Positions 5,513 through 33,004 are shown, numbered from the stretch's first letter. The stretch is 64,000 bases of DNA from Planctomycetota bacterium (GCA_026184295.1 JAHCJK010000003.1:14226-78225); one strand, 5' to 3'. The notes: generated by a model not told the origin, from the sequence alone. A program made the numbers and translations.

Positions 5513-5641
5513 CACCGCGCCCGCGGCGTTCTACATAGAGACCGTGGCGCAATGGTGCGCCGACGAAAGGAGGTGACCGGTGTTTAAGGTTTACTTCACC
5601 CTCGGAGCAGGGTGCCGGTAGCAAGCTGCCGGAAAAGCTCC

Positions 5642-5689
5642 GCGGGCCGCCGGGATGGCGTCGAAGGAGCCGGCGGCCCGCGTCTTTTT
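5642..5689. terminator. putative bidirectional rho-independent terminator
   Basis: A 12-bp GC stem (gcgggccgccgg ... ccggcggcccgc) is followed by TCTTTTT. It lies between convergent genes. Confidence 0.5.
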
Positions 5690-5700
5690 CAGGTTAGGAA

Positions 5701-6039
5701 TTATTTCGCGAGTTTCTCGAGCGCCTTCTGGTTCAGCACGTCCATCCCGCCGAGCGGAATCGTGAGCGGGAAGCTGGGCACGGCCTTGTCGAGCTCGGCC
5801 AGGTCGATGCGGCGGGTATCGACGAAGAGATCGGGAAAGGACTCGAGGCCGTTCTTCTTCAGGTAGGCGATGGCCAGGTCCGGCAGCGGGACCTTCTGCG
5901 CCAGCACGTCTTTGCTCACCATCATCGGCAGGTCGAGCACGAACGCCTTGCCGCCGGCCTCGCAGTTCAGCTTCAGGCGAAAGCCGGTGGTCAGGCCCTT
6001 GGGCGTCTCGTCCACGATGCTGACGATGGTAAGTTCCAT
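5701..6039 (-). CDS. hypothetical protein (112 aa)
   Basis: A clean ORF with balanced composition, lying downstream of the transporter gene on the same strand. Confidence 0.5.
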   Translation of the reverse strand: MELTIVSIVDETPKGLTTGFRLKLNCEAGGKAFVLDLPMMVSKDVLAQKVPLPDLAIAYLKKNGLESFPDLFVDTRRIDLAELDKAVPSFPLTIPLGGMDVLNQKALEKLAK

Positions 6040-7401: not shown

Positions 7402-7638
7402 GAGCCTCCGGGTGAGCGCATGACGCTGCCAGATGGCGGCCCGACCATCCACGTGCCTGCATCGCCTTGCGCGACGCACCCTTCAGAGCCCGTCCCTTGC
7501 ATGACCGGCCCGGCCCCCGTGGGGCGGAACCCTGATACCTGAGGCACGCCCGGGCTGCAAGTCGGGTTTGGCCGGAATCCACGGAAACTCGTGCCAGCGC
7601 TTTACTTCGAGTGCCCATGCCCTTACAAAACAACGCCC

Positions 7639-9636: not shown

Positions 9637-10449
9637 ATGATCGAGAAGTGCCTGATCGGCATCCGGGACGACACGCTGGGCGCTTCGTGGCAGGAAGCTT
9701 TCGCCGATGCCAAATCCGTCGGCGCCGAATGCCTGGAACTCGACGTGCCCGCGACGTGGCGCGACTACCCCATCTACAGCACCAGCGGACGCAAGAAGCT
9801 CAAGGAGCTTGAGGCCGCCAGCGGCGTGAAGCTGGTCTCCATCTGCCTCGGCGCGTTCTGGAAGCTCTCGCCGTCCTGCCCCGACGCGAACGTGCGCGGC
9901 CAGGCCGAAGCGCTGCTCGCCGAGACGATGCTGGCCTGCGACGCCTACGGCGTCCCGCACATCCTCGTGCCCTTTACCGACTGGAAGGGCGAGCCGCCGC
10001 TGCACTACAACGACCAGAAGCAGGGCTGGGTGAAGGTGCTGACCTCGCTGAAGGACCGCATCGGCAAGGCCAAGACGAAAGTCGGCTTCGAACTCTGCGC
10101 GCGCGACTTCGCGCATTCCGTCCAGCACGGCCTGGAAATCCTCGCCGCTTCGAACACGCCGGCCGGCGCGGGCATCTACTACGACACCGCCAACGGTTCC
10201 GGGCGCGGGCACCTGGCCGAACAGGACATCCCCAAGCTCGCCGGCACCAAGCGCCTCGCCGCCGTGCACATCAAGGACACGGGCGGAAGCCACCTGGGCG
10301 AAGGCAAGGTCAACTGGCCGGAAGTGAAGAAGGCGCTCGAGGCCGCGCAGTATGCGGGCCCCTTCGTGCTCGAAACGCCCGGCGGCGACGACATGATGGC
10401 ATCGGCAAAGAAGAACCTGGATTTCGCGAAGAAGCTCTTCCGGGGCTGA
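9637..10449 (+). CDS. sugar phosphate isomerase/epimerase (xylose-isomerase-like TIM barrel)
   Basis: The 270-aa product matches the AP-endonuclease-2/xylose-isomerase-like TIM-barrel fold. Confidence 0.75.
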   Translation: MIEKCLIGIRDDTLGASWQEAFADAKSVGAECLELDVPATWRDYPIYSTSGRKKLKELEAASGVKLVSICLGAFWKLSPSCPDANVRGQAEALLAETMLACDAYGVPHILVPFTDWKGEPPLHYNDQKQGWVKVLTSLKDRIGKAKTKVGFELCARDFAHSVQHGLEILAASNTPAGAGIYYDTANGSGRGHLAEQDIPKLAGTKRLAAVHIKDTGGSHLGEGKVNWPEVKKALEAAQYAGPFVLETPGGDDMMASAKKNLDFAKKLFRG

Positions 10450-10578
10450 CGGATCAGCGAAGAAACTCTTCCGCTGCTGACGAACCAGGCAGGAACCGCT
10501 CTTATCCTTCCAGATTGCGACCTACAGACGGTCAGTAAGCTCGGTCTCATCGTCCCAGCATAGCTCGTCTGGCTGTTA

Positions 10579-10966
10579 GCCCCGCAAAGCGGGGCTTTGT
10601 TCGAGCGAAGCGAGCATAACCCCCGGCTTCAGCCGGGGGCGTGAGCGCGCGTATGCGGGCGCTACCCCCGTTCACGGGGGTTCCCAATTTGGCAGGAGGC
10701 TTCAGCCATGGCACGGAATTATTACGCAGAACTTTTCTACCATATTGTATGGCGCACAAAACGCAGCGAGGCGCGCATAGTCCCGGAAATAGAAGCGCGC
10801 GTGCACGCGGCCATTGATGGAGCGCATCGAACCGTCGGCCTGAAGGCCCGGCGGGATTGTGGCAACCCCCGTAAACGGGGGTATTCCATTTGAAGTGCCG
10901 CTCACTCCCCCGGCTAAAGCCGGGGGCTATACTCGCTTCGCTCGAAAAAAGCCCCGCTTCGCGGGG
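10579..10966. mobile_element. REP/RAYT remnant: a truncated IS200-like tyrosine transposase ORF flanked by three nested REP-like hairpins in mirror symmetry
   Basis: Upstream hairpins are gccccgcaaagcggggc (10579-10595), cccccggcttcagccggggg (10620-10639) and cccccgttcacggggg (10665-10680). They are mirrored downstream by cccccgtaaacggggg (10865-10880), cccccggctaaagccggggg (10906-10925) and gccccgcttcgcggggc (10950-10966). The flanking sequences ttcgagcgaagcgag and ctcgcttcgctcgaa are also reverse complements. Confidence 0.7.
10708..10893 (+). pseudogene. truncated REP-associated tyrosine transposase (IS200/IS605 TnpA-like, Y1 HUH family) fragment
   Basis: The N-terminus MARNYYAELFYHIVWRTKRSEARI matches the conserved start of IS200-like transposases (YHxVWxTK). 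The ORF ends after 61 aa, well short of the HUH motif and catalytic Tyr, and runs into a REP hairpin. Confidence 0.6.
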
Positions 10967-11053
10967 CTCAACCATTCGACCGATGACAATGTCCGAGGAG
11001 TTCCTACCTGTGGCGTGAACGCTTACCGTTCCGACATCTGCGGGCTCGGATTA

Positions 11054-13198
11054 TCAGTTGTACTCCATCGTATAACCTTCCGGCGAGTTCATGTACCACT
11101 TCACCCCGGTCCAGAGGATCACGGCAAGGGCCTCGCCCACGATCAGCCCGACGAAGTAGCGTTTCCACGAGAGGTACGTGCGCTGGCCGCCGTACTTCAG
11201 GATCAGGAACTTGAAGAGCCAGCCGAGGAAATACGAGAACCACATGCGGTGGAGCGGCCAGGTGCCCATCCACATCACGTAGCCGATCGGGTGCGGCCAC
11301 CAGAAAAGGCGCGTGCGCAGGAACAGGAAGACGCCCATCGCCAGCGCGCCCACGATCAGCCAGCCGAGGCGAATGCCGTCGGTGCGCGCGACGGTGGGGA
11401 TTTCCGGCTCGGGAATCTCCTTGCCTTCCAGGGCGAACTTCTTCTGCTTCTCCTCCCACGCGTTGATCTGCGCCATCTTGTTCGCGAGGTTCTTGAATTC
11501 GCCCTGCGCGTGCGCGTCGTACGCCCAGCCGAAGGGCTTCGCGCCGCCCGGCGCGTTGTAGCAGGTCGAGTAGTACGACCAGAACGAGATGCCGAAGGTC
11601 AGCACCAGCGCGGCGGCCAGTCCTAAAAAAAGCGGGCGCTGGCGCATGCGCGTCAGCGATCCGAGATGCAGCGCGCCGACGACGTTGATCATGGGATTGC
11701 TGCGGTACCAGTCGAACGCGAAGACGCGGCTCCACATGCTCAGCAGCAGGAAGTTCTGCGCGCCCATGCCCACGGGCGTAAAGACCGAGGCGAGCTGTTC
11801 CGCGGGGTTCCCGTACATCTGCAGCCAGAAGACGCCGCCTTCGCAGACCAGCCGGGTCACGCCCGTCACCGAGCAGAGCAGGATGCAGACGGCGATCACC
11901 GACCACCCGAGGCTCACGCCCGCCCACATCAGCCAGGCCACCGACCCGATCATGCAGGAGACGAGCATCAGCCAGATCACGCGCGGCGAGACGTGCGCTT
12001 CGTCGTCGAAGGGTTCCAGGCCCAGCGCCTGGCGGAGGGACTGCAGCATCCCCGCGCGCGCCATGAAAAAGCCCACGAACACCATCATGAAGCACGCGCC
12101 GACGCCCTGCGCCGTAAAGATGCTGGCCGCGCCCTCCGTCCCGCCGAAATACCAGGCGCTGGTCCCCAGCCCGAACCACGCGACCGCGATAATGACGCCG
12201 AGCTTGAAGACGACTTCGTAGAAGAACCAGAGGCTGAACGAGACCTCCAGCGAGACCAGGTACATGATCCCGATCACGCTGGGATAGATGATGAAATAAT
12301 TCGGATGCGTGTAGCGGAAGGGCGTCTCGGTCAGGTAGGTGCCGTCGATGTGGGTGATGCGCAGCGGTATCTGCGCGATGATGCCGGGGAAGAAATCCCC
12401 CATGCCGTTGTACAGATGCAGCAGCAGCGTGGTCATGATGCCCAGCCAGGCCACCGTATCGGCAAGAAACGGCTCCTGCCCGTCGGCTTCCGCGTGCGGC
12501 AGGCCGCTCATCATGATCTCGGGCACCTGCGCGAGCGGGAACGGAATCCGTTCGCGGCGGCTCCAGTGCTGCTGCAGGAGCGCGCCGAGCGCCAGGAACA
12601 TCCCCAGGACGAGCACCAGCGCCAGGCACCAGCGCAGGTAGGGCATCGCGAGCAGGCTCCACGGGGTATCCTGCCCCGGCGGCACGCCCGTAAAGAACCA
12701 CTGCACCGGCCGCGGGTCCAGGGAGTTCGGGTCGATGGGGTCGCGCGGGGCCAGGCCTTCGGGGATCAGCGGGTGGAGCAGCGTGGCCCAGTTGTTCTCC
12801 GGCGTGGCGTAAAAGAACCCGCCCATCTGCTCGACGCTCATGTAGACCATGAAGCCGTACGTCGGGAGCGGGTTGATGAGCATGGTCATGGCGAAGATCA
12901 GCGCCAGGTCCTGCCGCGAAAGCGCCAGCCTTTTCCGGAACTGCGCCAGGCCCATGTTGAAGAGAAGAATGAAGCCGAAGAGGAAGAAAATGGAGGTCGG
13001 CGGCAGCAGGTTCATCGAATACTTCGTGCTGCGGATCACGAGATCGATGTAGGGGAGCAGCCAGGCGATCAGCGCCACGCAGACGAGGCCCATCACCCAG
13101 CCGCGCGCCGAAGGCGTGGAATCGTCCTGGCCCAGCACCGGACCCGAGACGGCACCGCTTTCCAGGCGCGGGCCGAGTCGGTATTCACGCTTGCTCAA
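11054..13198 (-). CDS. large polytopic membrane protein of uncharacterised family, paralog A (714 aa)
   Basis: It has about 14 or more TM helices. It shares the motifs PFPLAQ, IYPSVIG, LSLE(V/I)SFSLWF, WFPHPIGYVMWMG and LKYGG with the 43210-45330 protein. Confidence 0.8.
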   Translation of the reverse strand: MSKREYRLGPRLESGAVSGPVLGQDDSTPSARGWVMGLVCVALIAWLLPYIDLVIRSTKYSMNLLPPTSIFFLFGFILLFNMGLAQFRKRLALSRQDLALIFAMTMLINPLPTYGFMVYMSVEQMGGFFYATPENNWATLLHPLIPEGLAPRDPIDPNSLDPRPVQWFFTGVPPGQDTPWSLLAMPYLRWCLALVLVLGMFLALGALLQQHWSRRERIPFPLAQVPEIMMSGLPHAEADGQEPFLADTVAWLGIMTTLLLHLYNGMGDFFPGIIAQIPLRITHIDGTYLTETPFRYTHPNYFIIYPSVIGIMYLVSLEVSFSLWFFYEVVFKLGVIIAVAWFGLGTSAWYFGGTEGAASIFTAQGVGACFMMVFVGFFMARAGMLQSLRQALGLEPFDDEAHVSPRVIWLMLVSCMIGSVAWLMWAGVSLGWSVIAVCILLCSVTGVTRLVCEGGVFWLQMYGNPAEQLASVFTPVGMGAQNFLLLSMWSRVFAFDWYRSNPMINVVGALHLGSLTRMRQRPLFLGLAAALVLTFGISFWSYYSTCYNAPGGAKPFGWAYDAHAQGEFKNLANKMAQINAWEEKQKKFALEGKEIPEPEIPTVARTDGIRLGWLIVGALAMGVFLFLRTRLFWWPHPIGYVMWMGTWPLHRMWFSYFLGWLFKFLILKYGGQRTYLSWKRYFVGLIVGEALAVILWTGVKWYMNSPEGYTMEYN

Positions 13199-17327: not shown

Positions 17328-17488
17328 CGGGTGGCCCGGACGTCACACGTCCGGGGCGCGAAGCGCATGGAAGCACCCCACTGCGCGTACGAAGTGTCCG
17401 ATGAGGATTGCTTGATTCGGGAAGCAGTCTGCGAAGTGGGAAGCTTCTGCCCGCTGCGCGGCCCGGACGTGTGACGTCCGGGCCACCC
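17328..17488. mobile_element. MITE-like element with 26-bp perfect terminal inverted repeats
   Basis: gggtggcccggacgtcacacgtccgg (17328-17353) and its exact reverse complement ccggacgtgtgacgtccgggccaccc (17463-17488) bracket the element. Each arm is itself an 8-bp-stem hairpin (ccggacgt-cac-acgtccgg). It lies in a convergent intergenic region. Confidence 0.55.
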
Positions 17489-32931: not shown

Positions 32932-33004
32932 AGCCACCTCCCGGGATCGAACCGGGGACCTACGGTTTACAAAACCGTTGCTCTACCGGCTGAGCTAAGG
33001 TGGC
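32932..33004 (-). tRNA. tRNA-Thr (anticodon TGT)
   Basis: The reverse complement folds as a cloverleaf: acceptor GCCACCT/AGGTGGC, D-arm GCTCAGCCGGTAGAGC, anticodon stem ACGGT/ACCGT with loop TTTGTAA (U33, A37, anticodon UGU), and T-arm GGTTCGATCC. CCA is not encoded. Confidence 0.8.

Follow-up and report, generated by a model that had tools for sequence, protein, structure and literature searches.

In the REPtron, a gene for a repetitive extragenic palindrome (REP)-associated tyrosine transposase (RAYT, or TnpA-REP) is flanked by inverted REPs or by REP doublets forming hairpins (REPINs) (PMC6006769, class 2; Bertels and Rainey 2011, PMC3116915), and the catalytic motif of these class 2 enzymes is Y---NP (PMC6006769, Table 1). 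Insertion sequences (IS) of the IS200/IS605 type have hairpins on the same strand at both ends and no terminal inverted repeats (PMC6006769). Two further groups of small Y1 transposases have been delineated. Subclass 1.2, mostly from Cyanobacteria and Bacteroidetes (WQ, DH[IV]H, YIKNQKEHH, 148 amino acids), was described as having no REPs and, in general, no terminal secondary structures (Quentin et al. 2018, PMC6006769). Class 3, from Planctomycetes, Acidobacteria and Proteobacteria (NHVH, W[TA], YV[VI]xEQ or Y----Q, about 178 amino acids), has weak structures with a CnGA foot, for example CCGAGCCGCGACCGTAAGGGAGCGGA, and was proposed as a possible intermediate between IS and REPtron (Quentin et al. 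2018, PMC6006769). Here we describe an element of 391 nucleotides (nt), at positions 10578-10968 of a 64,000-nt stretch of DNA from a Planctomycetota bacterium (GCA_026184295.1, JAHCJK010000003.1:14226-78225; the whole stretch is termed the window), in which mirrored hairpin arrays enclose what is left of a Y1 transposase gene. We consider it, with a probability of roughly 0.8, to be a copy of a small hairpin-flanked Y1 mobile element that has been deleted internally and is no longer autonomous.

The element lies between two convergent genes. Its ends are inverted-repeat arms of 70 nt each (10578-10647 and 10899-10968) that are 91% complementary, with 64 of 70 positions matching once one arm is reverse-complemented. 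Each arm consists of an outer hairpin, A, a 23-nt linker with GCGAAGC, a second hairpin, B, and then 8 nt; the arms of the inner pair, C and C', are 24 nt long and 92% complementary. The resulting order, A-B-C ... C'-B'-A', is exactly that given by the initial annotation for 10579-10966. Reading from the left on the plus strand, hairpin A (10578-10596, AGCCCCGC-aaa-GCGGGGCT, then TTTGTT) is joined by the left linker (10597-10619, TTGTTCGAGCGAAGCGAGCATAA, a part of the 70-nt inverted repeat) to hairpin B (10620-10639, CCCCCGGCT-tc-AGCCGGGGG). GCGAAGC is at 10605-10611 in this linker, which ends in ATAA where relatives have CTAA or CTAG at the foot of B. The outer hairpin of full-length relatives, and that of gene-less units found in other Planctomycetota, have the same sequence as hairpin B. 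Hairpin C (10664-10681, ACCCCCGT-tc-ACGGGGGT, that is, ACCCCCGTTCACGGGGGT) stands 24 nt past B, and its tip, GTTCAC, is found family-wide. On the right, and also on the plus strand, C' (10865-10882, ACCCCCGT-aa-ACGGGGGT, tip GTAAAC) is the mirror of C; B' (10907-10926, CCCCCGGCT-aa-AGCCGGGGG), the mirror of B, stands 24 nt past C'; the right linker (10927-10949) is the left linker reverse-complemented; and hairpin A' (10950-10968, AGCCCCGC-ttc-GCGGGGCT) is the outermost. Two small plus-strand hairpins read by eye, D (10698-10707, GGCTTCAGCC), between an AGGAGG ribosome-binding site at 10694-10699 and an ATG, and D' (10837-10848, GGCCTGAAGGCC), are probably a fourth, weaker pair. Folded as a single strand the element has a z-score of -12.4, which none of 100 shuffles equaled; 6 of the 15 perfect hairpins with a stem of at least 8 bp in all 64 kb fall inside it; and B- and C-type patterns were observed twice each, against 0.01-0.02 expected in the shuffled window. 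Chance is excluded as the source of the hairpin structure.

Between the arrays, an open reading frame (ORF) of 61 codons (10708-10893, plus strand) follows the AGGAGG. The initial annotation took the entire 61-residue product for a remnant of an IS200-like Y1 transposase, a view that stands for residues 1 to about 44, matched by Pfam, phmmer and the relative P0011, and falls for the last 17 or so, residues 45-61 being read-through of hairpins D' and C' and not transposase. The predicted resemblance to Y1 profiles was found, below threshold but specific, so that the combination which the initial annotation named as refuting it, a missing Y1 match together with missing further copies, does not arise: residues 8-47 align with positions 4-43 of Y1_Tnp (PF01797, E=0.0097, 16.5 bits, gathering score 23 bits), and the NCBIfam IS200 model NF033573 (cut-off 55 bits) matches with E=0.026 and 14.7 bits. 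The ORF scores under both cut-offs because only about 44 transposase residues are left. The fragment gave no match to NF047646 (REP_Tyr_transpos, cut-off 80 bits), and a word-indexed homology search with the 61-residue sequence returned nothing. Exhaustive phmmer comparison with 1.84 billion representative proteins yielded six matches (E between 4e-5 and 7e-4), whose alignments all begin at residue 1; one of them, P0002, is a complete transposase of 148 amino acids. The fragment is 59% identical over 44 amino acids to the N-terminus of P0011 (144 amino acids), and the homology stops near residue 44 (RTVG versus REQG). The retained 5' part of the gene (10708-10839, plus strand; about 44 codons, 130 nt) corresponds to the initial beta-strand and helix; the homology ends upstream of both the HUH motif and the catalytic tyrosine, which are therefore missing, and the intact gene is lost here, as the initial annotation supposed. 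These comparisons support the reading of the ORF as what remains of the N-terminal part of an IS200-like Y1 transposase gene, best annotated as a pseudogene fragment.

A follow-up profile search gathered 1,544 relatives of about 150 amino acids, all with PF01797. The nearest full-length loci (L001, L071, L072 and L073) are built as B, 24-25 nt, C, gene, C', 24-25 nt and B', with the consensus CTAR-CCCCCGGCTTYAGCCGGGGG, 24-25 nt, ACCCCCGTTYACGGGGGT, gene, ACCCCCGTRAACGGGGGT, 24-25 nt, CCCCCGGCTGAAGCCGGGGG-YTAG. From B to B' these relatives span 581-643 nt, compared with 307 nt in the window, and therefore about 275-335 nt have been lost there. The lost stretch extends from about codon 45 to the hairpin beside the stop codon; the DNA alignment to the relatives breaks off near codon 45 and picks up again at C'. 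D' probably marks the right edge of this internal deletion, to judge from the homology with the gene ending there. Small hairpins at comparable places occur in intact loci: in L072, GAGGCTTTAGCCATG abuts the ATG in the same arrangement as D in the window, and in L002, GCCTGAAGGC spans the stop codon. Frameshifted or truncated copies of the family are also present in the databases (P0003-P0006). In two full-length loci, L071 (3001-3489) and L072 (1455-1952), the transposase ORF has no stop before C' and runs on through C' and B', giving read-through proteins of 162-165 amino acids with the tail ...VTPVNGG...; as read from these frames, a C-terminal tail can be encoded by hairpin sequence.

The mirrored hairpins are a trait of the family. 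Our family set comprised 80 metagenomic loci fetched by family alignment, together with L001-L003, and 60 loci had enough flank on both sides for comparison. In 56 of these 60, the flank upstream of the gene matches the one downstream as an inverted repeat (score of at least 20), with a median local flank score of 35 for inverted alignments against 13 for direct and 9 for shuffled ones. Perfect hairpins with stems of at least 6 bp number 3.9 and 3.6 in the two flanks, compared with 0.34 per 350 nt within the gene. The upstream tips are GTTCAC, GTTTAC, CTTCAG and TTTCAA, and the downstream tips are their complements GTGAAC, GTAAAC, CTGAAG and TTGAAA; loop polarity is thus strictly mirrored between the two flanks across the family loci. 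In the window B, C, D and D', C', B' obey the same rule, and hairpin A is reversed in polarity. A table of stem covariation was drawn from hairpins pre-selected for pairing and is not independent structural evidence. The foot of B is ATAA/ATAG in the window versus CTAA/CTAG in relatives; the foot of B carries no GT[AG]G tetranucleotide, and C has no conserved GTAG on its 5' side, in either the window or the relatives. Hairpin A has no match in 150 related loci, hairpin A and linker together are likewise absent from these 150, and the A-B linker pattern had 0 matches in a metagenome scan. One possibility is that hairpin A and the linker form an outer layer specific to this lineage; another is that they represent an older palindrome, in the center of which a B...B' element was inserted. 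A full-text literature search returned no description of hairpin arrays of this Y1 family, and its architecture appears to be undescribed.

Hairpins of the same kind also occur without a transposase gene. Hairpin C was found in 61 stretches of the genome collection, mostly from metagenome-assembled genomes (MAGs) of Planctomycetota, and only 2 of the 61 have a Y1 gene alongside. In the MAG LacPavin_0920_SED3_MAG_65_12, a gene-less unit of about 190 nt is present at seven loci with unrelated flanks. Its order is B, 24 nt, C, GGGCTTAAGCCC, a reverse-oriented C-like hairpin and B'; it carries the identical B-24 nt-C module and equals the mirror structure of the window minus the gene. Fragmentary Planctomycetota genomes other than that of the window each have 3-7 loci with the B-C module or hairpin C. 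Such modules also lie close to full-length elements: L071 has a gene-less B-C-C'-B' module (5586-5751) about 2 kb from its full element, and L073 a partial C-C'-B' module (1147-1236), the distances to the full-length elements being 0.3-2 kb in these two loci, which suggests local duplication or decay of elements. With 130 nt of gene kept, the window copy seems to represent a stage between the complete element and the mirrored units that have no gene. The initial annotation anticipated related REP copies dispersed through this genome, with possible use as strain markers. No further copy of hairpin A, B or C exists in the other 63.6 kb of the window, and it is in other MAGs that dispersed B-C modules were found; the locus would be a possible strain marker only if insertion polymorphism were shown.

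Hairpin C has a counterpart in another setting. In the Leptospiraceae MAG HK-STAS-SPIR-3, ACCCCCGTTCACGGGGGT is centered in an AT-rich repeat of about 200 nt, bracketed by TTCCCCC...GGGGGGAA, at 10 or more loci (L011-L013, L017, L019, L026, L027, L031, L036 and L042); the 8-kb loci examined are without a Y1 gene. The repeat belongs to a separate family, with the 18-nt hairpin in common. The window itself also holds a REPIN-like pair of inverted intergenic hairpins, CCCGGACGTcacACGTCCGGG and CCCGGACGTgtgACGTCCGGG (17335-17355 and 17462-17482, 106 nt apart), unlike the hairpins of the element in sequence and with just these two copies in the window.

By its sequence the transposase family scores as IS200-type and not as canonical RAYT. 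Full-length relatives reach 66-74 bits on NF033573, passing the cut-off for IS200/IS605; on NF047646, P0002 (17.7 bits) and P0011 (16.2 bits) fail, and P0022, P0049 and P0012 have no match. Among 120 family proteins, Y---Q--[RH]H is present in 119 (HH in 40, RH in 79) and Y---NP in none; the HUH motif, [TDN]HVH, is THVH in 82 and DHVH in 16; and 115 have WQ (WQ-GYG). The median length is 151 amino acids, with no extra domain. In JGI annotation some of these relatives bear the name "REP-associated tyrosine transposase" or RayT. Context was checked for two clusters of identical proteins (P0119 and P0089): each is found on 8-10 contigs with always the same neighbors, which would be expected of a stable single-copy gene rather than of an active multi-copy IS. 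P0089 (L155-L160) is always directly downstream of an AF2212-like/PIN (VapBC-type) toxin-antitoxin pair. No tnpB-type gene was called beside the transposase gene in L003 or L151-L163.

Judged by motifs and not by HMM profiles, the closest described group is TnpA-Y1 subclass 1.2, with which the family shares a median length of about 148-151 amino acids, WQ, Y---Q--HH (here [RH]H), a short conserved C-terminal tail and an apparently low copy number. The present family differs in being largely planctomycetal, in having mostly THVH rather than DH[IV]H, and in the mirrored arrays of its flanks. Class 3 was considered on account of its planctomycetal distribution and was rejected on motifs and on its published hairpin sequences. 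Besides that distribution, it has in common with our family that the structures can be multi-copy in the host and that both have been suggested as intermediates between IS and REPtron; the stems here are strong and perfect, with tips GTTYAC/CTTYAG, and the protein motifs are WQ and Y---Q. Further sources on REPtrons and TnpA-REP are reportedly Nunvar 2010 and Ton-Hoang 2012.

The element also invites comparison with miniature inverted-repeat transposable elements (MITEs), which are usually DDE-derived and make target-site duplications. As in MITEs, both ends are kept, the interior is lost and the length is a few hundred bp, and a graded series can be laid out from the full element through the window remnant to the gene-less units. 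Unlike in MITEs, no duplication is evident here, and the chemistry would be that of a Y1 enzyme on single-stranded DNA.

The surroundings of the element suggest that it was gained. The 604-nt spacer (10450-11053) separates a sugar phosphate isomerase gene (PF01261, 9637-10449, plus strand) from a convergent gene for a DUF6785 membrane protein (11054-13198, minus strand). The isomerase is 100% identical to P0126, and the source of the window is a Planctomycetota MAG. In L066-L068, which share with the window a syntenic block of PtsI, isomerase and convergent DUF6785 gene, the spacer is 15 nt long, and the 604 nt of the window are therefore most simply a gain. The T-rich tracts of both outer hairpins face inward, that of A' being a T run 3' of the hairpin on the minus strand. 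From its sequence, hairpin A looks like a terminator for transcripts arriving from the left, and hairpin A' looks like one for the convergent DUF6785 gene. A terminator consensus scan listed C' as the sole candidate of the element and neither A nor A', for which reason their terminator role is a reading of the sequence alone.

How an intact element would work can be sketched by analogy with studied enzymes. The intact form, as seen in metagenomic relatives, comprises some 580-640 nt, with a gene for an IS200-class Y1 (HUH) protein of about 150 amino acids between mirrored GC-rich arrays, in the order B, 24-25 nt, C, (D), gene, (D'), C', 24-25 nt, B'. The enzyme would bind the hairpins as single-stranded DNA, as inferred from IS608 TnpA and E. 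coli TnpA-REP (PMC6006769), would recognize them by the tip (GTTYAC or CTTYAG), perhaps together with YTAR at the 5' foot of B, and would then cut and rejoin nearby. The form recognized would be on opposite strands at the two ends, and the unit would therefore behave like a REPtron or REPIN and not like a classical IS200. In the window, the deletion of about 275-335 nt has removed the HUH motif and the catalytic tyrosine and spared all of the cis hairpins. To judge from its lack of catalytic residues, the window copy cannot move alone; at most, a full-length member of the family encoded elsewhere in the genome could mobilize it in trans. Failing that, it would persist as a structured spacer whose outer hairpins could terminate or stabilize the two convergent transcripts. 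The locus itself is a case of ordinary decay, a dead and possibly trans-mobilizable remnant.

Three other explanations of the locus were weighed. The initial annotation saw in it the hallmark of a REP-RAYT system, and the layout it recognized, REPtron-like and mirrored, is indeed present and conserved in the family. Were this a remnant of a canonical proteobacterial REPtron, a domesticated class 2 TnpA-REP would have been lost from a genome in which REPs are high-copy. Much of the organization agrees: a small Y1 HUH gene with several GC-rich hairpins mirrored on its two sides, dispersed units of inverted hairpins that lack a gene, a gene at one stable locus in both clusters tested, TTCA or TTTA loops in the B hairpins like those of class 2.7/2.8 REPs (PMC6006769, Table S1), and the JGI labels of some relatives. 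It is the enzyme that does not fit. The relatives reach only 16-18 bits on NF047646 against 66-74 on NF033573, none of 120 has Y---NP, and beside B there is YTAR with no GT[AG]G foot, so that the annotation named the wrong family. Each arm, moreover, is a fixed series of distinct hairpin types (B, C, D) at fixed spacing, and the gene of the window is gutted. REP-rich genomes such as those of E. coli and Pseudomonas carry one REP every few kb, and no further copy was found across 63.6 kb here. We regard a canonical REPtron as distinctly improbable.

A dead copy of an ordinary IS200/IS605 element, its hairpins being the usual subterminal ends with no REP-like life, would account for the enzyme: the family passes the NCBIfam equivalog for that group, its proteins are short, have Y---Q and lack an extra domain, and broken copies are on record. 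IS200, IS608 and ISDra2 share with our element the transposase class (NF033573/PF01797) and subterminal hairpins as cis sites; as in IS200, the ribosome-binding site here is overlapped by a hairpin, and non-autonomous derivatives arise by internal deletion. What such an IS does not account for is the arrangement of the ends, which are inverted in 56 of 60 loci where those of IS200/IS605 lie on the same strand without terminal inverted repeats (PMC6006769). Classical members have one hairpin at each end, often tnpB and multiple identical copies; here there are several hairpins per side, gene-less mirrored units are dispersed, identical proteins occur in one context only in the two clusters checked, and no tnpB was called beside the gene in the annotated contexts. 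An ordinary IS is thus an unlikely source. The position of the element exactly between convergent genes, with TTTGTT 3' of A on the plus strand and a T run 3' of A' on the minus strand, would suit a block of host regulatory hairpins, that is, a bidirectional terminator or mRNA-stabilizing structure with a chance ORF inside, and REPs are known to act in this way (PMC3733652). Such an origin is very improbable, given that the N-terminus of the ORF matches Y1 transposases, that hairpins B and C also enclose full-length transposase genes in unrelated contexts, that syntenic relatives make do with 15 nt, and that the terminator scan of the element listed only C'. A terminator role is compatible with a deleted Y1 element as a secondary effect, not as its origin.

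Several observations weigh against a deleted copy of a mobile Y1 element. The 64-kb window contains no second A, B or C hairpin, no other Y1-like sequence and no full-length Y1 gene, and for this genome mobilization in trans and REP-like dispersal are suppositions. With 58% protein identity the syntenic relatives are distant; their empty site argues for a gain and neither dates it nor fixes the exact ends. In each 70-nt arm, the 42 nt of hairpin A and its linker recur in no related locus or metagenome contig, and a part of the mirror structure is thus not explained by the family element. The foot beside B departs from the CTAA/CTAG of the relatives, and we found no published test of DNA binding or cleavage by this enzyme family.

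The remnant in the window may, more tentatively, represent an intermediate in an undescribed planctomycetal system of REPtron type, in which an IS200-class (subclass 1.2-like) enzyme owns the B, C and D arrays and gene-less units arise by MITE-like internal deletion. We put this forward as a possibility that we would not yet favor over its opposite. The origin of REPs, REPINs and domesticated transposases from IS200-like IS is still argued; here an IS200-class enzyme carries the full REPtron layout, and three states of one element can be seen: full, gene-gutted (in the window) and gene-less mirrored. Such a system would provide a concrete route from an IS200-like IS to REPIN-like repeats with a stable single-copy transposase. 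Should the enzyme act on the hairpins, it would make a simple test system for the transition from IS to REPtron and would explain many structured intergenic repeats in Planctomycetota.

An identity of the hairpins with the Rfam motif Acido-Lenti-1 (RF01687) was considered and rejected: its matches to B' (10907-10937, plus strand, 20.3 bits) and B (10609-10639, minus strand, 17.8 bits) are generic hairpin matches below the gathering score of 37, and an Rfam scan of 20 related loci found no family at its threshold. The Acido-Lenti-1 model likewise has a GC hairpin followed by GGCUA, and this orphan motif may itself be a REP-like DNA repeat.

Some similarity extends outside the element. Beyond A and A', 10559-10577 and 10969-10985 have about 12 of 17 inverted matches, which is indistinguishable from chance, and a weak outer inverted repeat (10486-10501 and 10995-11010; 16 nt, 81%), no better than chance pairs, was not used. 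At a level that does not stand out from chance, these hint that the mirrored region once covered nearly the whole 604-nt spacer. About 90 nt to the left of the element, at 10426-10487, is a tandem 31-nt duplication (GCGAAGAAGCTCTTCCGGGGCTGACGGATCA / GCGAAGAAACTCTTCCGCTGCTGACGAACCA, 84% identical) that copies the last 24 nt of the isomerase gene together with its stop codon; it may be the scar left by whatever event lengthened the spacer. An nhaA-I RNA (RF03057, a Na+ riboswitch candidate; 7431-7481, minus strand), scoring 49 bits against a gathering score of 37, lies immediately upstream of the PtsI region and on the other strand. The single tRNA of the window is a tRNA-Thr (TGT) at 32932-33004 on the minus strand.

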